DNA of 64,000 bases from Octopus vulgaris (taxonomy: Eukaryota): the NCBI GenBank assembly GCA_951406725.2, contig OX597814.1:109306001-109370000 (forward strand), given 5' to 3'. The notes below the pieces were generated by a model. It worked only from the letters and a program-made list of their open reading frames with translations, did not search any database and had not been told where the DNA came from. Position numbers and translations under genes: made by a program. Positions 5,352 to 63,219 of this stretch are shown piece by piece (position 1 is the first letter of the stretch; each line of letters begins with the position of its first letter).

Positions 5352-5560
5352 ATGACAGCTGTTGTGAAGCAATACAATAATGTCTTCTTTAGTTCTTCAG
5401 AAAAGGAAACTGTAGAGATTGTGGAACCTCATTTCATTAATAAGGATTGCAAAGATGTTATCGATCAGGCCAAAGTCCACTTGATGTTGCGGGAGTTTTC
5501 TGAATGCCTCACGACGTGTCTTGAAGGGCTTGATAAATGCAAACGGCTTTCCCATGACGG
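5352..5560 (+). CDS. PEX26: PEX26 (peroxisome assembly protein 26) coding exon 1
   Basis: ATG at 5352; MTAVVKQ...DQAKVHLMLREFSECLTTCLEGL resembles the PEX26 N-terminal helix; GT donor at 5561 (phase 2). An upstream acceptor tttcag ending at 5294 suggests a further 5'-UTR exon. Confidence 0.85.
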
Positions 5561-5647
5561 GTGCGTAAACATCCACTATTTATTTATTTGGAATGGTTTC
5601 TCTGATTTATTTTATATTCAGAGTCACAATTAGGGGGAGAAAAAAAA

Positions 5648-10062: not shown

Positions 10063-11313
10063 TTGGACAAAATAATGGAAATACCTGAAAATTTCAAACA
10101 AATTTATTTTAATATGGGGTAGGACCACCTTTGACAGTAATTACAGCTTGAATTCTACGAGGTATGGACTCGTACAAAGTCTAAATTGTTTCCAAAGGAA
10201 TTTTTGTCCATTCTTCAGCTAAAACAGTCTCCAGTTCTTGTAGTGATGATGGTGGAGGATATCAACTCCTTACTTGTTTTTCTAAATTGCACCATAAATG
10301 TTCAATAATATTGAGATCTAGGGACTGTGGTGGCCAGATAAGATTTTCAGCTTCACTAGAACGTTCCTCATGCCATTCAGTAACAACTTTAGCTGTGTGA
10401 ATTGGTGCATCATCTTCCTGAAAGATTGCATTTCTCTCCAGAAACAGTTCTGCAACCATAGGATGAATTTGATCAGATAAAATGCTTAAATAGTCTTGAC
10501 TATTAATTCTGCCATGAAGGGAAACCATTGGGCTGGCAGATTTCCAAGATATAACCCCCCCATCCCCGATCATCACAGACCCTCCTCCATGTTTAACAGT
10601 TGGAAGAAGGTAGTCTGGGCCAAATGCTTCTTTTGGCTGTCTCCACACATATACTCGGCCAATGGTCAGAAATAGGGTAAAGGATGACTCGCCTGAGAAA
10701 ATAACATTCTTCCACTGCTCTAGGGACCAATTCTGTAGGTTTTTACTCCACTCTAAATGCTTAGCAACGTTTGTTTTTGAAAGTAGTGGTTTTCTGATTG
10801 CAGCCTTCCCATGAAGTCTGGCTTTGTGCAGCTCCCAGCGAACAGTTTTTGTGGAAACTGAGTTCTCGAGGTGGTCATTAAGCTCTGCGGCAATTTTGTG
10901 ATATTTTCTAACAATTCGCGTAAGAGTCCAACAGTCCCTATGTGAAAGTTTTGGTTTTCTTCTGGAGTTTTATTCCAATGAGGTTTTTTCCTCTTTCTCA
11001 AAGCCTGTCTTTACTTTCGAGACAGTACTTCTTGATGCACCAAACATTTTGGCTGTTTTCACTACGCTAAGGCCTGCTATACAAGCACCAACAATTTGAC
11101 CTCTTTGAAAGTCCGATAGATCTATCATTTTAATGAATTTTAATTACCTTTTTCTGATGATATCTGAAAAGAAACAGCAATTTTAGCAAAACATATTAAG
11201 CAACACTAATAATAAATTAAAAAACACAAAAAAATAAACAAGCTTTCGATGGTTTTATAGATATTTCAAAATTATGATGCTATGTGTTTCCATTATTTTG
11301 TCCAACCCCTCTA
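10063..11313 (-). mobile_element. Tc1-like DNA transposon, decayed
   Basis: TIR ttggacaaaataatggaaa(c/t)ac at both ends, TA at 11312-11313; transposase from ATG at 11128 (MIDLSDFQRGQIVG), with TVKHGGGSVM, FQEDDAPIH and DLNIIEHLW motifs. Confidence 0.92.
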
Positions 11314-11536: not shown

Positions 11537-11671
11537 AATTTGTTATGAAAGTTTTGTAATTTTGGCAGTACAAGCATACGGTGAACAGAATAAATGGAAA
11601 GAAGTTCTTCCTTTCATTGATAAAATCTATGGAAACATCAGTCAGTGTCCTCCCACAGTGATAAAACTTTG
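11537..11671 (+). CDS. PEX26: PEX26 coding exon 2
   Basis: tttcag acceptor and GTAAGT donor; translates ICYESFVILAVQAYGEQNKWKEVLPFIDKIYGNISQCPPTVIKLC, matching vertebrate PEX26 'GIQALAEMDRWQEVL...LPPKVLELC'. Not in the ORF track. Confidence 0.9.
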
Positions 11672-12815: not shown

Positions 12816-13074
12816 AGAATAAATACCAGGCTTCAAAAAAATATAGAACACTTAGGATTGATTTATTTGACTAAAATACCCTAAGGCAGTACCCCAGCAT
12901 GGCCATAATCTAATTAGTGAAGCAAGTAATAAATTAAAAATTTCTAAAATCTCATTTCTTGATGGTCCTAAATGTCGGTCTCGTCTTTGCAATAATTAAT
13001 AAATTTTTAATGTATTTCATGTTTGACATTTAAATGAAATCTATTTTTATAACATTTTGTTGTTTCGCTTTTAG

Positions 13075-13367
13075 CATTGGCCTTTTGTCATGGGTTAAAG
13101 AATACGATGTGGCTCAAAAACAAGCATGTCTGTGGCTGGAGAATCCACAGAACTTGGAGAAGGAACACACAACGGTAGGGAAGCTGGTTGTTGAAGAAGT
13201 CTTATTACCACAAAAGAAATACTTGGAAATTTCGCATTTTGTTGAAAAGATGCTTAAACTGAATCCTGAAGAAAGAAAACAGATACAAAATTTTGTCTCG
13301 GAAGCAAAAAGATACGAAGATAGTAAAATGGAGAAATTTAATAATATCAAAACACCTACAAAGAAAG
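13075..13367 (+). CDS. PEX26: PEX26 coding exon 3
   Basis: ttttag acceptor and GTAAG donor; IGLLSWVKEY...WLENPQN...VEEVLLP matches PEX26 'ILLYSKMQE...WLQDPAN...VQRVLLP'; frame continuous with exon 2. Confidence 0.9.
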
Positions 13368-13480
13368 GTAAGCTCTTTAAAATTTAGTAACATCATCATC
13401 ATCATTTAAGCATTCACTTTTCCATGCTTGCATGGATCGGACAGAATTTATTGAGGCAGATTTTTGTGCAATCAGATGCT

Positions 13481-13986
13481 CAGTTCTATATTTAAGAGAC
13501 AAGGAATTATGTACATTATTTACATTTGACGGATATTTGTCTTCATCTTGTTTGTTGTTAACACAACGTTTCGGCTGATATACCCTCCAGCCTTCATCAG
13601 GTGTCTTGGGGAAATTTCGAACCAGGGTTCTCATTCCTAAGGTATTTTTTGATATTGTTATTATTATTATTCAGGTCACTGTATAGAACTCGGAATCTTG
13701 GGGTTAGTAGCCCATGCTCTTAACCTCTATGCTCACGGGCATATGACATAGTGGTTAAGAGTGTGGGCTACTAACCCCAAGATTCCGAGTTCGATTACAG
13801 GCAGTGATCTGAATAATAATAATCATAATAATAATAATAATAATATCATCGAAAAATACCTTAGGAATGAGAACCCAGGTTCGAAATTTTCCCAAAACAC
13901 CTGATGAAGACTGGAGGGTATATCAGCCAAAATGTTGTGTTAACAACAAACAAGATGAGGACAAATATCCATCAAATGTAAATAAT
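13481..13986 (-). mobile_element. Inverted-dimer tRNA-head/hammerhead retroelement, copy 1
   Basis: Two ~250 bp arms in inverted orientation about a centre near 13735; flanking duplication aatcagatg at 13470-13478 and 13984-13992. Confidence 0.85.
13560..13605 (-). ncRNA. Minimal type I hammerhead ribozyme motif (Penelope-like)
   Basis: Minus-strand RNA GACAC-CUGAUGA-A-GGCUG-GAGGGUAUAU-CAGCC-GAAA-CG-UU-GUGUU: intact core, helix I GACAC/GUGUU, helix II GGCUG/CAGCC, palindromic AACGUU helix III. Confidence 0.75.
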
Positions 13987-14678
13987 CAGATGTCCTTCCT
14001 ATTGCCAACCCTCATCTGTTTGCAAGCAAAGTGATAATTTCACAGCTATCGATGGATGTCTTTCAGTTTCCACCTACGAAACCCACTCAGGGATGTAGTG
14101 GAAAACACCCAAATTGCCATGCAGTGGGACTGAACTCAAAGCCATATGGTTAGAAGGCAAACTTCTTAACCACACTGCCACATATGTATGCTGGCACCCA
14201 TGCTGATGGTACATAAAAAGCACCATTTGAGTGTGGCCAATGCCAGTGCCACCTGACTGGCATCTATGCTGGTGGCATGTAAAAGGCACTCACCACACTC
14301 TCAGACTAGTGGGCATTAGGAAGGGCATCCAGCTGTAGAAACCTTGCCAAATCCGATTGGGGCCTGGTGCAGCCTCCCAGTTTGCCAGTTCTCATTCAAA
14401 CCGTCCAACCCATGCCAGCATGGAAAGTGGACGTTAAACGATGAAACACACACACACACAGAGACAAGGCGTATCAGATTTTTTGAGGTCATTTGTATGA
14501 ATCTAGAAAAAGATCTCATTAAAGTAAAGCAGCATTTGAAAACGAATGGTTACAAAAAATCTGAGAATGCTTTTATCACACCTATTCAAGGACTCCATCA
14601 ATGGCTGCTTCAGTATGAGGTCGAAAGCATTGACACACCTGATTCAAATGATCTTTATCCATTTTGGACATAATGCTG

Positions 14679-16078: not shown

Positions 16079-16169
16079 TTTATCTGAAAAGTAAGGTGAA
16101 AAAAAAAGTAAACCAGAAGAATGTTAGAGCTCTTGAAAGAGATGTCCTCAAAAGACTGATGCACCCTGT

Positions 16170-16274
16170 GTATAGAATGCACCAGTTCTCATCCGATCAC
16201 TAAAGTTAAACAACGTCAAGCTGAGATAAGTACTTAGATGGGTGACTGCTTGGGAAACCTAGGTGCTGTAAGCA
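16170..16274 (+). pseudogene. 5'-truncated 5S rRNA relic
   Basis: gaatgcaccagttctcatccgatcactaaagttaaacaacgtc...agtacttagatgggtgactgcttgggaa...gtgctgtaagc aligns with metazoan 5S from about nt 20 to the end, with CpG-type decay. Confidence 0.85.
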
Positions 16275-16858
16275 TCTCACTTATCCTAAGCGGTGCCCCA
16301 GCATGGCCTGTCTAATGACTGAAACAAGAACACACACACACACACACACACATTTATTTATTTATGTATGTCGCCTTACTGGCACCTGTGCCGGTGGCAT
16401 GTGTAAAAGATTCGAGCGAGGTCGTTGCCAGTACCTCCTGACTGGCCCCAGTGCTGTGGCATGTAGAAGGGCACCATTCGAGCGTGATCATTACCAGCGT
16501 TGCCTTACTGGCACCTGTGCCGGTGGCATGTGTAAAAAGATTTGAGCAAGGTCATTGCCAGTACTGCCTGACTGGCCCCCGTGCCGGTGGCACGTAAAAG
16601 CACCCACTACACTCTTGGAGTGGTTGGCGTTAGGAAGGGCATCCAGCTGTAGAAACTCTGCCAGATCAAGATTGAAGCCTGGTGCAGCCATCTAGTTTGC
16701 CAGTCCTAAGTCAAACCGTCCAACCCATGCTAGCATGGAAAGCAGACGTTAAACGATGAACGAATGTTTATATATTTATTTGTGTGTTAATGTGTTTCTG
16801 TTTACTTTTTTCAATATACAACCTGTTAATGGGCAGAATATTTCAATCCATCTTTCAG

Positions 16859-17002
16859 AAGAAGAGCAGAATGTGATGCTGTCACTGATAGAAAGAATGA
16901 AGGCCTTCTTCCAGTCCTTGTCACCATACTTCCGACATGGTACAGGAAAGGTCCTATTTCTTGGCCTCTCGTTGTATTTGGTCTTCCTCCATCTCAGGGT
17001 CG
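16859..17002 (+). CDS. PEX26: PEX26 coding exon 4 (transmembrane anchor)
   Basis: ctttcag acceptor and GTAAGT donor, phase 1/1; encodes KVLFLGLSLYLVFLHLRV, the hydrophobic tail-anchor segment. Confidence 0.85.
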
Positions 17003-17532: not shown

Positions 17533-17771
17533 TTTATTTGTTTCAGTCATTTGACTGCGGTCATGCTGGAGCACCGCCTTTAGTCGAACAAATCGGCCCC
17601 CAGGACTTATTCTTTGTAAGCCCAGTACTTATTCTATTGGGTGTTTTTTGCTGAACTGCTAAGTTATGAGGGACGTAAACATGCCAACATCAGTTGTCAA
17701 GCGATGGCAGGAGGACAAGCACACACACACACGCATGTATGTGTATATATATATATATAAATCTCTGTATA

Positions 17772-17849
<78 letters not shown>

Positions 17850-18008
17850 TAGATACGACGGGCTTCTTCCAGTTTCTGTCTACTAAATCCACTCATAGTG
17901 CTTTGGTTGGCCCAAGGCTATAGTAGAAGACACTTGCCCTTGGTGCCACATAGTGGGACTGAACCTGGAACCATCTGGTTGGAAAGCAAGTTTCTTACCA
18001 CACAGCCA
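17533..18008 (-). mobile_element. SINE family A with long (TA)n
   Basis: Reverse complement of the family A consensus. Confidence 0.85.
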
Positions 18009-18942: not shown

Positions 18943-19042
18943 ATGCCCACAGGCATATGGCGTAGTGGTTAAGAGTGCGGGCTACTAACCCCAAGATTCC
19001 GATTTCGATTCCAGGCAGTGACCTGAATAATAATAATAATAA
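18943..19042 (+). mobile_element. Solo tRNA-like head of the same element
   Basis: A-box TGGCGTAGTGG and B-box-like TTCGATTCC followed by (AAT)n; closely matches the central head of the dimer family. Confidence 0.75.
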
Positions 19043-20022
19043 TTTTCAATTTTTGTTATTTTGACAAATATGAAATACTGACCAAATAAGTTTTAAACTT
19101 GAGCTGGTCAGCTGGACTTTAAGGTTCCATAAGGTCCCATGATGTTCTCATTTTTAGTAAATTCTATAAAAATTATTAGTAATGGTAGCAGAAAACTTTT
19201 GATTATTTATATAATGTAATATGAACTGACTTACCGACCTGTACCACTTCTCTTATATTCACCTCCCTGTAACAAGAGGGGACACCCTGATGCCTCTTTC
19301 CTTGGCAACTGGGGTAACCACGGATCTCTGCTACTCAAGACACCTGTTCTTGTCTCTCTTTCTTACATCATTCTTTTTAAACCTGACATGGTGCCACCTC
19401 CCTCAATACTGCATCCAACTGTCAAGGGGCCTTGTCTTGTAAGTTACTTGGTGATCCCACTGTTGGTGCCACACCCAGTCCACTCTGTAAAATTGTTGGT
19501 GTTAGGAAGGGCCTCCAGTCATAGAAACCATGCAAAGGCAGGCATTGGCACTTGGTGTAGTCGTCTGGCTTGCCAGCTCCTGTTTAACCTTCCAATCCTT
19601 ACCAGCATGGAAAATGGATATTGAATGATGATGATGATGATGATGTTTTATAAGTTGGTTAAGGAGGGTGCATGGGGTGACCCCATGACCATTGTAGGTT
19701 ATCTCTGTGGCATCTCACAGCATCTGCTTATTCTGATTCCCTACAGTCTTTGTTCAAATTGCAGTGAAGTCAACTTTACCTGTCTTCCTTTCTGGGGTTG
19801 GTTAATAAAATTACTGATGCAGGGCAGAGGAATAAGAGAGCTGTTAGAGGGAGCAGCGGCTAGATGCCTTGTTGTATCTGATAGCTGACAGATTTCTCAA
19901 GACATACAGCACAGTTTAGCTGACTTTCAATGATGTCTGTTTTAAGTATGATACGCAGATTGCTAGTTTGAACTAATACTGCTTTTGTCACAAATAACAA
20001 AAATTTTCTCATTATCTTTCAG

Positions 20023-21479: not shown

Positions 21480-21987
21480 TGTACATTATTTATATTTGAT
21501 GGATATTTGTCCTCATCTTGTTTGTTTTTAACACAACATTTTGGCTGATATACCCTCCAGCCTTCATCAGGTGTCTTGGAGAAATTTCAAACCTGGGTTC
21601 TAATTCCTAAGGTATTTTTCAATGTTATTATTATTATTATTTAGGTCGCTGCTTGGAATCAAACTCGGAATCTTGGGGTTAGTAGCCCACGCTCTTAACC
21701 ACTATGCCATATGCCTTTGGGCTCACAGGCATATGGTATAGAGGTTAAGAGCATGGGCTACTCACCCCAAGATTCTGAGTTCGATTCTAGGCAGTGATCT
21801 TAATAATAATAACATTGAAAAATACCTTAGGAATGAGAACCCAGGTTTGAAATTTCCCCAAGACACCAGATGAAGGCTTGAGGGTATATCAGCTGAAACT
21901 TTGTGTTAACAACAAACAAGATGAGGACAAAATATCTGTCAAATGTAAATAATGTAAATAATTCCTCATCTCTTAAATATAGAACTG
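21480..21987 (+). mobile_element. Inverted-dimer tRNA-head/hammerhead retroelement, copy 2
   Basis: Both heads retained; duplication gattaact(t/c)ctg at 21470-21481 and 21988-21999. Confidence 0.85.
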
Positions 21988-23081: not shown

Positions 23082-23153
23082 CAATTTTTGGTGTAATGTT
23101 TAGCACTCTGGACTTTGAATCCAGTGATCCAAGTTCAAGTCTCGGTAGAACCT
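23082..23153 (+). pseudogene. tRNA-Gln(TTG) pseudogene
   Basis: tggtgtaatgtttagcactctggactTTGaatccagtgatccaagttcaagtctcggtagaacct is near the canonical tRNA-Gln sequence, but the 5' acceptor strand (caatttt) no longer pairs properly. Confidence 0.85.
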
Positions 23154-36445: not shown

Positions 36446-36518
36446 GGCCAGCCATGAGACTTGAACTCACGTCCCTGTGATTATGCATCCAGTGCTTTAC
36501 CATTAAGCTAAACCGACC
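36446..36518 (-). pseudogene. tRNA-like sequence (CAT anticodon position), probably a SINE-type head
   Basis: Cloverleaf with D stem GCTT/AAGC, T stem GTGAG/CTCAT and loop TTCAAGT; wobble-rich acceptor stem, bulged anticodon stem, G instead of U33. Confidence 0.65.
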
Positions 36519-41945: not shown

Positions 41946-42318
41946 CAGTTCTATATTTAAGAGATGAGGAATTATTTACATTATTTACATTTGACAGATA
42001 TTTGTCCTCATCTTGTTTCTTGTTAACACAACATTTCAGCTGATACACCCTCCAGCCTCCATCAGGTGTCATGGGGAAATTTCAAACCTGGGTTCTCATT
42101 TGTAAGGTGGTCGTCGTCAGCGTCGGCGTCATCATCATCATCATTATTATTATTCAGATCACTGCCTGGAATCGAACTCGGAATCTAGAGGTTAGTAGCG
42201 CATGCTCTTAACCACTACACCATATGCCCAAGATACTTAATGAAGGCTGGAGAGTATATCAGCTGAAATGTTGTGTTAACAACAAACAAGATGAGGACAA
42301 ATATCCGTCAAATGTAAA
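41946..42318 (-). mobile_element. Inverted-dimer element, copy 3 (one head missing)
   Basis: Duplication atttgttaaaaaca at 41934-41947 and 42318-42331; second arm resumes just before the hammerhead. Confidence 0.85.
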
Positions 42319-42369
42319 TTTGTTAAAAACATTTAAAACACTGAATCAGAAACAGAATAAATTTCTTAC

Positions 42370-47304: not shown

Positions 47305-47552
47305 GTACATTATTTACATTTGACGGATATTTTCCTCATCTTGTTTGTTGTTAACACAAGATTTTGGCTGATATACCCTCCAGCCTTTATCAGGTGTCTT
47401 GGGGAAATTTCAAACCTGGGTTCTCAATCCTAAGGTATTTTTCGATGTTGTTGTTGTTGTTATTGTTATTATTCAGGTCACTGCCTGGAATTAAACTCAG
47501 AATCTTGGGGTTAGTAGCCAGCGCTCTTAACTACTACGCCATATGCCCATGG

Positions 47553-47591
<39 letters not shown>

Positions 47592-47758
47592 CAACAACAT
47601 CGAAAAATACCTTAGGAATGAGAACCCAGGTTCAAGACACCTGGTGAAGGCTGGAGGGTATATCAGCCAAAACGTGTTAACAACAAACAAGATGAGGACA
47701 AATATCCGTTAAATGTAAATAATGTACATAATTCCTCATCTCTTAAATATAGAACTGT
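47305..47758 (+). mobile_element. Inverted-dimer element, copy 4 (one head missing)
   Basis: Perfect duplication actattgttggt at 47295-47306 and 47759-47770. Confidence 0.85.
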
Positions 47759-54767: not shown

Positions 54768-55916
54768 CTGAAACACAAAGAAAAAGGGATTAACTAATTT
54801 CAATTAACTGATATTAATAAATTTTATGAGAAAATGACGGATCCTCAACATGATTGCTTGCTTTGTTAGTAATAGCAGCCAAATCTCTCTCAAATCACAA
54901 CCTACGGTCGTAAACAAAGAAAGAAAACATCATATTAGACCGATGGTTCTCAACTATTTTTTTTCTCTGTTTTACTCAGATTGGTCCTGGAAGATATTCG
55001 ATATTTAAAAAAATCTAATTAAACTTATAGAATTAAATATTTTTAGGAATGTATAAAAATATTGTTAAAATATTTGGTGATTTAAAGCATAGGCAATATC
55101 TTACACAAATTTTAACAAAAACATCTTATAACAGATCTCCAAAAGTCATATGAACCCCAGGTGAGAACCACAACATTAGATAATCTAAGACGTCCCTTAG
55201 AACATACAATGGCCACAGATAATTTATTCAGCTATAGTGTATCTAGAACTACACTATTCAATGTGTCCGTTACTTTTTAAAGATATAAAGGTGATGGTGG
55301 CACATGAAAAGCACCCACTACACTCTCAGAGTGGTTGGCGTTAGGAAGGGCATCCAGGTGCAGAAACCTTGTCAGATCAGATTGCCAGTCCTCAGTCAAC
55401 CCGTCCAACTTATGCCAGCATGGAAGGTGGATGTTAAATGATGGTGATGATGATGGAAGGTGTTATTTGAGGGAGATTTGGATACTGTTTTTAACAAGGT
55501 GAGTGACCACATAAAGACTCCCTTTAGATGTTTCTCTGAGACAATGGCTGTGATATTAAGGAGCTGGACTGCAAACAACATGAGCAAGGTTCTTTCCTCT
55601 ATTTATGCAGGTTTATTGAACAAATAAGAAAAATGCTATAATTAAGTTGAGAGCCAAAAGGATATGTAAGAGTGAAAAGCAACCAATCTGACAAAATAAA
55701 ATTCTGAGTTAAGAAAAAAGAAGCAGGTCAGAAATATGAGCGGTTTTGACAGATACAATACCATTCTTAGCTCCTTCCATAAGCAATGTAGTGGAGTGAG
55801 TTGGGGAGAGAGGAAGGGTGAGAGGAGAGAATGTGAGTGATGAGGAGGCATGCATTAGAAATGATGAATGATGGAGTGGAAATGACTGATCCTGGAAATA
55901 GCAGTATAAATGGTTT

Positions 55917-56340
55917 GTACATTATTTTCATTTGATGGATATTTGTCCTCATCTTGTTTGTTGTTAATATGTTTCAGCCTTTATCAGGTGTCTTGGGGAA
56001 ATTTTGAACCTGAGTTCTCATTCCTAAGGTATTTTTTGATGTTATTATTATTATTCAGGTCACTGTCTGGAATTGAACTCGGAATCTTGGGGTCAAGAGC
56101 ACGGGCTACTAACCCCAAGATTCTCAGTTCGATCCCAGACAGTGACGACAACGATGACGATGACAACATCGAAAAATACCTTAGGAATGAGAACCCAGGT
56201 TCAAAATTTCCCCAAGACATCTAATGAAGGCTGGAGGGTATATCAGCCGAAACATTCTGTTAACAACAAACAAGATGAGGACAGATATCCATCAAATGTA
56301 AATAATGTAGATAATTCCTCATCTCTTAAATACACAACTG
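55917..56340 (+). mobile_element. Inverted-dimer element, copy 5 (centre partly missing)
   Basis: Duplication taaatggtt(t/g)gta at 55907-55919 and 56341-56353. Confidence 0.85.
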
Positions 56341-61788: not shown

Positions 61789-61800
61789 TGATGATGAAAA

Positions 61801-63219
61801 ATGACAGAAACATCTAACGTTAATCTTGACCAGCAGAATGTCATAAAAGAACTAGACCCAGCGGAGAGCTACAAGTACCTAGGGGTAATTGAAGGGAATG
61901 GAATAAAGCATTCAGAGATGAAGGAAAAGATCAGGAGAGAATGTTATCGAAGAGTGAGAGCAATACTCAAGACAGAGCTGAATGCAAGAAACAGGATCGA
62001 AGCGATCAATGCATTAGCCATACCAGTCGTGACTTACAGTTTCAATATCGTTAACTGGTCAATTACTGAAATATGTCAGCTCGACAGAAAAATAAGAAAA
62101 CTGTTGACAATGCATAGAATGCACCACCCTAAGGCAGATACAGAACGACTTTATCTGCCAAGAAAAGAGGGAGGCCGTGGTCTTTTGCAACTGGCAATAA
62201 CAATGAAGATTGCTACAATTGGCCTAGACACCTACCTGAAAAAGTCTGAGGATAGGATGTTAAAACTTGTCTCAAAACATGAAAACAAGAAAGCATCATA
62301 CTCAGTAACAAAACAGGCAAAGGAATATCTAAGTGAATTCCGAATACAACAAATTTCGGAATTAGAGATAGACATACAAGAAACAAGCACAGAAAAAGCT
62401 AGGCGCATGAAAACCCGTGCCAAAACTGCGGCCTTAGATATTCTGAATAATAAATGGCAAGAAAAACCTCTCTATGGCAAATACCCAAAGAGAGCGAATA
62501 ATGTAGATATTGACAAAGCCCTGACCCATCAATGGCTAATGGCCTCTGGCTTAAAATCTGAAACAGAAGGGTTTATCATAGCAGTTCAAGATCAATGCCT
62601 ACCAACAAGAAACTACCAGGCCAACATATTAAAGAACGGCAGTAGCCCAACATGTCATGTATGCCAACAACAAAATGAAACCATTGATCATGTAGTCTCC
62701 AAATGCAGTCTTCTAGTGCCTACAGAGTACCTCAACAGGCATGATAGAGCTGCACAATATATTCACTGGGTAATTTGCAAAAACCTGAATTTGCCCCATG
62801 AAAAAAACTGGTGGGAACACAATCCACCTCCAGTGCTTGAAAATGACCACATCTCACTCCTCTGGAACTTCACCATTCAAACTGACAGAAAGATAGATGC
62901 AAATAGGCCAGACATCATATTGAAAGACTTCAGACAAAGAACATGCCTCCTCATTGATATGACTGTACCAATCGATATAAACGTATTTGTCAAGACCTAT
63001 CAAAAACTGAGCAAATATAAAGATCTTGAAATAGAAATCAGCAAAATGTGGAACCTGAAGACTAAAACAATACCTGTTGTCATAGGTGCCCTGGGAATGA
63101 TAGCGAAAGGGGCTGATTGCTACCTAACTCAGATACCAGGAAACCCCAAAATGGCAGAAATTCAAAAGATAGTGCTCATGGGAACTGCTCATATCCTACG
63201 CAAAATACTCTCTATGTAA
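61801..63219 (+). CDS. 5'-truncated ORF of a Dong/R4-clade non-LTR retrotransposon (end of RT, CCHC zinc knuckle, restriction-like endonuclease)
   Basis: Uninterrupted 472 aa: YKYLG, LYLPRKEGGRGL, CHVC..ETIDHVVSKC, RHD, RPD..IDM, KLSKY. 3' UTR to about 63416, then (TAA)n. Confidence 0.92.
   Translation: MTETSNVNLDQQNVIKELDPAESYKYLGVIEGNGIKHSEMKEKIRRECYRRVRAILKTELNARNRIEAINALAIPVVTYSFNIVNWSITEICQLDRKIRKLLTMHRMHHPKADTERLYLPRKEGGRGLLQLAITMKIATIGLDTYLKKSEDRMLKLVSKHENKKASYSVTKQAKEYLSEFRIQQISELEIDIQETSTEKARRMKTRAKTAALDILNNKWQEKPLYGKYPKRANNVDIDKALTHQWLMASGLKSETEGFIIAVQDQCLPTRNYQANILKNGSSPTCHVCQQQNETIDHVVSKCSLLVPTEYLNRHDRAAQYIHWVICKNLNLPHEKNWWEHNPPPVLENDHISLLWNFTIQTDRKIDANRPDIILKDFRQRTCLLIDMTVPIDINVFVKTYQKLSKYKDLEIEISKMWNLKTKTIPVVIGALGMIAKGADCYLTQIPGNPKMAEIQKIVLMGTAHILRKILSM

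Follow-up and report, generated by a model that had tools for sequence, protein, structure and literature searches.

An intact minimal hammerhead in an octopus tRNA-headed repeat, probably inserted as inverted pairs by a Penelope-like protein

The gene that hosts the motif described here is PEX26, identified in the window (the whole 64-kb stretch of Octopus vulgaris DNA that was analysed) by a Pfam match (PF07163, E = 1.2e-6) and by 100% identity to an Octopus sinensis protein. Four plus-strand exons could be mapped (Table 1), and a back-to-back pair of short repeats, pair A, falls between 13366 and 16855; the pair is therefore intronic and the intact hammerhead motif in its left arm is antisense to PEX26, as a first-pass annotation of this DNA had said with respect to the pre-mRNA. 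The same annotation had described the sense copy in the right arm as broken, and this copy indeed carries G12>A, C15.2>U and an A–C mismatch in helix II. The strand difference between the intact and the broken copy is a single case.

Several other features accompany the pair in this gene. A Tc1/mariner transposase fragment (DDE_3 and HTH_Tnp_Tc3_2; 10262–10969, minus strand) lies in a PEX26 intron, and a 5S rRNA-like copy shares the intron of pair A. It belongs to a set of 5S rRNA-like and tRNA-like sequences at 16155–16274 (+), 23089–23145 (+), 36446–36517 (−) and 44128 (+), which probably represent pseudogenes or heads that belong to other SINE families. The right arm of pair A runs in the sense of PEX26, and a GT donor-like site is present near the short end (13975–13986, +) and at the corresponding place in other arms. 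In Octopus, two gene models unrelated to each other (P0001 and P0002) start with the peptide of the repeat and leave the repeat at the same point, beside this site; sense arms of the repeat may be exonized.

Pair A is one of five back-to-back pairs in the window, which also contains one solo head. An arm comprises about 85 nt of tRNA-like head, then an (AAT/AAC)n tract, then a part of about 170 nt that resembles a Penelope pseudo-LTR (pLTR) and includes the hammerhead; the total is about 270 nt. An open reading frame (ORF) for reverse transcriptase (RT) plus GIY-YIG is absent from every pair; the element is non-autonomous.

Table 1 Coordinates of the hammerhead motif, its carrier repeats and the host gene exons in the window
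Feature	Position	Strand	Remarks
Minimal type I hammerhead	13560..13605	-	5 bp in each of helices I and II; extra A; ACGU as helix III, with no loop
Helix I, 5′ strand	13605-13601	-	Direct reading
Core CUGAUGA	13600-13594	-	Direct reading
Extra A, between 9 and 10.1	13593	-	Direct reading
Helix II, 5 bp	13592-13588 with 13577-13573	-	Loop of 10 nt
GAAA	13572-13569	-	Direct reading
C15.2/G16.2/U16.1	13568-13566	-	Direct reading
U17	13565	-	Predicted cut site 13565/13564
Helix I, 3′ strand	13564-13560	-	5 bp, the outermost being G-U
Palindromic ACGU, helix III	13569-13566	-	Loop-less
Pair A long arm	13481..13732	-	5′-truncated tRNA-like head, (AAT)n, pLTR-like part with hammerhead, tail
Tail of about 31 nt, long arm of each pair only	13481..13511	-	Read ends at 13481 versus 13512/13513
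Pair A short arm	13731..13986	+	Full-length head, damaged boxes; no tail
Dead hammerhead, pair A short arm	13896-13941	+	Substrate half intact
Pair A target duplication, left	13470..13478	+	9 bp
Pair A target duplication, right	13984..13992	+	9 bp; overlaps short arm end by 3 nt
Pair B	21480..21987		Short arm left, long right; right head (21734) with intact A/B boxes; 12-bp duplication (1 mismatch)
Pair C	41946..42319		Long arm left, intact A/B boxes (42222, -); 14-bp duplication
Pair C short arm	within 41946..42319		Truncated to just before hammerhead
Pair D	47305..47757		Short arm left, full head; long arm truncated at (AAT)n; 12-bp duplication
Pair E	55916..56340		Both heads truncated, joined at short shared sequence; 13-bp duplication (1 mismatch)
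Solo tRNA-like head with (AAT)n	18945..19043	+	No pLTR-like part
PEX26 exon	5352-5561	+	Mapped to protein, 98-100%
PEX26 exon	11538-11669	+	Mapped to protein, 98-100%
PEX26 exon, upstream of pair A	13070..13366	+	Mapped to protein, 98-100%; Pfam
PEX26 exon, next after pair A	16855-17001	+	Mapped to protein, 98-100%

Read directly from the minus strand, the left arm of pair A holds an intact minimal type I hammerhead as first described, with the core CUGANGA, GAAA and UH, helices I and II, a palindromic loop-less helix III and an extra nucleotide. A type I descriptor-like search, of the kind the earlier annotation had called for, gave this single match in 64 kb and none in 100 dinucleotide shuffles. 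Rfam returned no hammerhead at gathering level over the 64-kb window and none even at E ≤ 10 over 13470–14000; its miRNA matches at the element are far below gathering and reflect the hairpin only. Helix III had been read as the palindrome AACGUU: the loop-less palindrome stands, but its pairing part is ACGU (4 bp in the dimer), A14 and U17 belonging to the core.

These features place the motif in an already published class, the PLE-type minimal hammerheads, for which an additional residue separating position 9 from 10.1, a palindromic 15.2–16.2 and a helix I of 4–5 bp have been described (Cervera and de la Pena 2014, PMC4209133). The activity of the octopus motif is a prediction. According to that description monomers do not cleave and dimers cleave weakly, and the motifs occur as opposite-strand pairs 100–700 bp apart (PMC4209133); this bears out the earlier expectations that the octopus motif would need a second copy and that an extra A between A9 and G10.1 is tolerated in some natural cases.

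The nine other arms of the window had been reported as broken, often at CpGs, and all nine are lesioned in the core, helix II or helix III, each of them being hit by a substitution or deletion within CCGAAACG. Among the ten decayed arms helices I and II show no covariation. In the DNA contigs of run X1, the four CpG positions of the hammerhead differ in 12–18% of the depth and four other CpG positions in 13–15%, a similarity which indicates that the family majority has an intact core. Within the window, 3 of 17 hammerhead CpGs survive versus 11 of 27 elsewhere (p = 0.18), and neutral decay predicts 0.65 intact arms in ten where one was observed. The single intact arm thus needs no selection, and selection that keeps the antisense copy intact is an unnecessary assumption. 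Against plain neutral decay, non-CpG core positions differ more often than others (8/95 versus 50/1528; p = 0.017, post hoc), which may be chance or may weakly suggest that active cores are selected against. The intact hammerhead is a survivor in one old, decaying copy and by itself of little import. The free core position N7 (13596 in the window) shows a transversion in 17% of DNA run X1 versus 4–5% in three other runs, behaving as a subfamily variant would.

More can be learned from the carrier. A target duplication of 9, 12, 14, 12 and 13 bp (pairs A to E), with no or one mismatch, flanks all five pairs, against a best of 10 nt with one mismatch in 20 cross-paired flanks; because a single duplication encloses both arms, each pair represents one insertion. 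The arms are unequal in every pair, one ending at a fixed far point and the other 30–38 nt earlier. The short end overlaps the duplication by 2–4 nt in 5/5 pairs and the long end in 1/5, being otherwise flush or followed by 1–2 extra bases, in a scan that favours extension of the overlap and with ends set by eye. Both ends are fixed, non-repetitive points, 53 and 84 nt after the cut site, with no simple-repeat or poly(A) tail. A small hairpin that surrounds the short end scores no better than shuffled sequence (z = 0.42).

The same two ends recur in read ends from other sequencing runs. Two RNA runs (X23, 8051 matched of 12,895,792 reads; X24, 6578 of 11,974,664; the reads being about 6% of each run) have loose ends at 13481 versus 13512/13513 in numbers of 1366 versus 1333 and 1183 versus 881, respectively. 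In the DNA contigs of X1 (38,971 matched of 35,842,385), ends at 13481 (332), 13506 (232) and 13512 (179) are among the best supported, and joints of 13529–13675 to 13733–13740, among the best 15 of 168, correspond to variably truncated inverted arms. One joint to the opposite strand, 13527/13556, occurs in 66 and 50 RNA reads and points to a single copy that is well expressed and whose inverted arms are very short.

A MITE, or a foldback DNA transposon whose terminal inverted repeats are long, would likewise be nearly palindromic and lie within a duplication, as each element here does. We regard this reading as scarcely credible, given ends that are unequal by 30–38 nt, duplications that range from 9 to 14 bp, centres cut at different points and the presence of a tRNA-like head and a hammerhead; a MITE is largely refuted.

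The centres of the pairs differ: both heads are whole in B, one or both are truncated in A, C, D and E, and the arms join at 1–5 shared bases. Nine arms extend as far as the pLTR-like part. In eight of them this part begins at one shared position behind the microsatellite, the ninth (C_L) being rearranged there, and this constant junction between head and pLTR makes the composite the unit. None of the five insertions is a direct tandem. Divergence at non-CpG positions is 6.2% between the arms of one pair versus 7.0% to other arms, which gives no evidence of a shared template molecule for both arms. Scaled from one pair per 13 kb, a 2.8-Gb genome (PMC13282606) would hold about 2 × 10^5 pairs, an order-of-magnitude figure from five pairs that all come from one 64-kb window.

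At 61798–63219 (+), between long (AAT)n tracts, lies a 473-aa open frame with a zf-RVT match (E = 5.7e-5). This frame resembles the 3′ part of a Dong/R4-type LINE. An ordinary LINE might have mobilized a SINE that was inverted through twin priming, which does not duplicate the 3′ end, or each SINE might later and independently have received its own Penelope fragment within the (AAT)n tract. Besides this frame, the solo head with its (AAT)n end and the preference of PLEs for microsatellites (PMC8557442) speak for these two routes. Both are nevertheless very improbable and are contradicted by the 3′ end in both arms, by the constant junction after the microsatellite and by the single duplication around both arms; moreover, the element ends without a simple-repeat 3′ tail.

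The insertions of the window resemble those of PLEs. An inverted, 5′-truncated adjacent copy and a tail of 30–40 bp on one end have been singled out as PLE hallmarks that are not seen with LINE-type priming (Craig 2021, PMC8557442), and all five octopus pairs have a tail at one end and an inverted, 5′-truncated copy at the 5′ end. How PLEs form inverted copies and tails was termed undefined in that account (PMC8557442). The lizard PLE protein PAc has since been described as cutting and extending both strands, with two internal start sites that bound the tail (Frangieh 2024, PMC11167929).

The head resembles a Pol III unit. A and B boxes lie 45 nt apart, the tRNA spacing, in two heads (21734, +; 42222, −), and an A/B-box scan gave four matches in the window, one of them an Rfam tRNA match with 44-nt spacing, versus none in 30 Markov controls. 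T4 runs occur in sense in 1/10 arms and in antisense in 8/10. ARAGORN found no tRNA genes, Rfam did not call the head a tRNA, the head does not fold as a cloverleaf and blastn of the head against phages produced chance matches only. The head may resemble tRNA-Arg. It is likely a Pol III unit, as predicted from these boxes, with a transcription that would fit internal priming from read-through RNA with a random 3′ flank. The solo head shows no clear duplication and may be the parent short retroposon.

Alternatively, the element could be Penelope-mobilized with the tRNA-like head as passive cargo, derived from a PLE master that captured a SINE, was transcribed by Pol II read-through and left 5′-truncated copies of about 270 nt. 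Reads fall equally on both strands, so that a Pol III transcript is not seen, a solo head exists and PLE copies are usually 5′-truncated (PMC8557442). We still think this unlikely: full-length arms start 5–6 nt before the tRNA-like start, both in the window and in the loose-end consensus of all four runs (the fourth, X15, being putative RNA contigs), nothing further upstream is shared, and sense-strand T4 runs are nearly absent.

We therefore consider it probable that the carrier is a tRNA head joined through (AAT)n to a Penelope-like terminal repeat, a predicted Pol III unit that a Penelope-like protein inserts as back-to-back pairs. Under this proposal, a short tRNA-derived element ending in (AAT)n would have gained a Penelope pseudo-LTR, giving a Pol III unit without a T4 terminator that would read into the flank. 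By analogy with PAc (PMC11167929), the protein would nick both target strands about 9–14 bp apart, and reverse transcription would begin at two internal sites of the RNA, separated by about 31 nt, and would need no defined RNA 3′ end. One cDNA would start at the far site, yielding the long arm with its tail, and the other at the near site, yielding the short arm with its overlap of 2–4 nt, which is the pattern seen in the DNA; the two would then meet head to head, often truncated, within one duplication, as the DNA also displays. The hammerhead would be passed on as part of the terminal repeat. It would have to dimerize in order to cut, likely with the aid of protein, and would likely be dispensable for insertion; its genomic copies decay at CpGs. 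A pair within a host pre-mRNA would form a predicted hairpin of 130–220 bp, which would conceal the ribozyme and would probably undergo editing by ADAR.

A sister family, accessible to us as spurious translations only, has the same two ends. Of 74 ends, 45 were classed as long, 24 as short and 5 remained unclassified by a regular expression, several of the ‘short’ rows being misread long ones. This family occurs as direct tandems with units of about 126 nt (P0004–P0007, P0134, P0135 and P0203), and in four proteins an in-frame run continues past the long end into one conserved ORF. We presume this ORF to be a PLE N-terminus; it had no match in Pfam, PHROGs, NCBIfam, PDB or Atlas searches, and protein searches for an autonomous element sharing the 3′ end returned fragments only.

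What, then, might the ribozyme do? The first-pass annotation had proposed that the two outward transcripts of one element supply both partners in trans, with cleavage between 13565 and 13564. In its fullest form, the two transcripts would dimerize through ACGU and cut each other, with consequences at the locus or for insertion. All 14 base pairs between two such molecules are geometrically possible, including when the partners are the arms of pair A, and in a young pair whose heads are both intact, two RNAs joined as a hammerhead dimer could feed two-ended insertion. The subfamily-like N7 variant in X1 and, in the sister family, an apparent C–G for U–A swap in helix II, inferred from translations only, lean the same way.

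At pair A several observations speak against the proposal. The core of the right arm is dead, and the right arm is thus unable to cut the intact arm at 13565/13564, so that at most one-way cutting would remain, by the intact left arm on the right-arm substrate. Neither head passes the A/B-box scan; in the head of the intact arm, the A box was removed by the central junction and the B box has a deletion. In a transcript across the pair, 43–45 of the 46 motif bases are predicted to pair with the other arm (folds of about −340 and −330 kcal/mol for the plus and minus strands), and read-through RNA would bury the motif. In calculations with no tertiary terms, the active dimer fold (−20.7 kcal/mol) is less stable than either a pair of free monomers (−25.2) or a misfolded dimer (−29.2). 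Read ends do not pile up at the cut site or elsewhere in the X23 and X24 RNA reads, a weak argument against cleavage at 13565/13564 since such libraries seldom keep these ends, and no arm ends at 13564 among the best 15 of 168 joints. In the lizard system, a dimer is predicted for PAc, insertion in vitro proceeds normally when the ribozyme is mutated, and the hammerhead itself needs the protein (PMC11167929). A trans partnership within pair A is accordingly unlikely, and a role for dimer cutting at the locus or in insertion is improbable.

The same core also turned up in 81 metagenome loci (82 matches, 54 distinct). Helix I reached at least 4 bp with other sequences in 8 of the 54 distinct motifs, versus 0.96 in shuffled pairings, and 36 of the 54 have G at position 17 in the register used. 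The exact octopus motif had no match in the metagenome contigs, nor did related hammerhead patterns in viral or prokaryote contigs. Among 62 oriented matches with 600 nt of upstream sequence, two independent loci (L023, the same as L064, and L075) have GIY-YIG-like frames that end 130–360 nt upstream of the core on the same strand. These frames may represent a PLE GIY-YIG region; three profile libraries were silent on them. Pfam scans of six long ORFs near metagenome motifs gave one WD40, one RT 2.7 kb downstream and four without a family; by Pfam, none of these six is a PLE ORF. An unrelated metagenome contig (L039:1253–1835) carries the same core as a divergent inverted pair with 177-nt arms of 94% identity, a parallel to the pairs of the window with no evident tRNA head.

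Back-to-back pairs are also hairpins. The pairs make up 3.5% of the window bases, but of the 50-mers that have an inverted match no more than about 4 kb away they account for 104 of 161 at 48/50, for 564 of 918 at 45/50 and for 758 of 1598 at 43/50; their share of inverted matches drops to 21–37% with BLAST within 10 kb. A near-perfect hairpin of 82 nt (95%) at 17770–17851 lies outside the repeat family. Octopus has been described as one of the two most hyper-edited species, with an unusual share of near-perfect hairpins, in a study with no repeat annotation (Porath 2017, PMC5625713), and the heavily edited lizard Penelope of the same study offers a precedent for edited Penelope hairpins (PMC5625713).

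Among the positions listed, A>G changes number 25 and 27 in the two RNA runs versus 8 in the DNA run, and 21 in the putative RNA contigs X15; T>C changes number 35 in each RNA run versus 7 in the DNA run, and 10 in X15. Six positions picked from the best 40 of 145 show 11–35% in X23 and X24 versus 0.2–9.6% in DNA. This excess is likely A-to-I editing on both strands, in a comparison with unmatched DNA in which the RNA and DNA runs carry different species labels.

A broader claim is more tentative, and we hold it with rather less than even confidence: the repeat would be a Pol III SINE partnered with a PLE instead of a LINE, present in Octopus in copies on the order of 10^5 and almost always inserted as one long and one short arm, back to back. 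If true, the family would document, across a whole genome, how a dimeric PLE protein primes from two ends, and would be a leading source of the near-perfect hairpins that underlie hyper-editing in octopus. A short family whose duplications each enclose one long and one short arm, with 2–4 nt of target overlap at every short end, would let the formation of PLE inverted copies and tails be tested on very many events.

The repeat family is probably already in Repbase, Dfam or the O. vulgaris repeat library under some label, and its sequence may be catalogued even if its anatomy is undescribed. SINE heads occur on LINE tails. In LTR elements, too, tRNA or SINE heads are known (PMC10886601). Our literature search returned neither a tRNA-headed element that bears the insertion signature of PLEs nor a hammerhead from octopus; Schistosoma SM-alpha comes nearest. 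At the level of the ribozyme, the octopus motif shares with the published minimal hammerheads (PMC4209133) the lack of loop 3, the palindromic 15.2–16.2, the extra nucleotide and the short helix I, as well as the arrangement in opposite-strand pairs a few hundred bases apart; the dimer-dependent weak activity is theirs and is predicted here. It differs in a helix II of 5–6 bp, as against the 7–8 bp described for Schistosoma, and in a carrier that is a tRNA-headed non-coding element.

The carrier itself can be set beside several families. Ohshima and Okada are said to have reported in 1994 that the octopus SINEs OK, OR1 and OR2 are tRNA-derived and abundant. The present repeat is likewise a tRNA-derived, abundant retroposon. 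OR2 is listed as a CORE-SINE (PMC4758252), and no CORE domain is evident by eye in the window repeat. In its workings the repeat resembles both a non-autonomous PLE and a SINE. Compared with SINEs, the repeat lacks a LINE-derived 3′ end; compared with retrozymes, it lacks tandem units. Non-LTR retrozymes (PMC7229834; bioRxiv 10.64898/2026.07.22.740005) and non-autonomous Chlamys elements, MRC1 among them (PMC8557442), are similarly non-coding, PLE-related and proposed borrowers of PLE enzymes, as the 2026 preprint argues for retrozymes (bioRxiv 10.64898/2026.07.22.740005). They are direct tandems, the retrozymes yielding circular RNAs, and the descriptions at hand mention no tRNA head.

Schistosoma SM-alpha and Sj-alpha (PMC6765202) come close in layout, being short non-coding retroposons in which a Pol III promoter precedes a type I hammerhead; they are described as head-to-tail tandems from which monomers are cut out in vitro. 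Unlike them, the octopus repeat combines a minimal core with a back-to-back arrangement, a tail of PLE type and duplications of 9–14 bp, and keeps its head upstream of an uncut ribozyme. With Penelope and Poseidon insertions, as far as these have been described (PMC8557442; PMC11167929), it shares the inverted 5′-truncated copy by the 5′ end, the 30–40 nt tail on one end, the two ends downstream of the hammerhead and the AT-rich targets. It departs from Penelope and Poseidon PLEs in having no ORF, about 270 nt per arm, a Pol III-type head and an inverted pair in 5/5 insertions. The likely novelty resides in a tRNA head on a Penelope terminal repeat, in asymmetric inverted pairs that were probably mobilized by Penelope.
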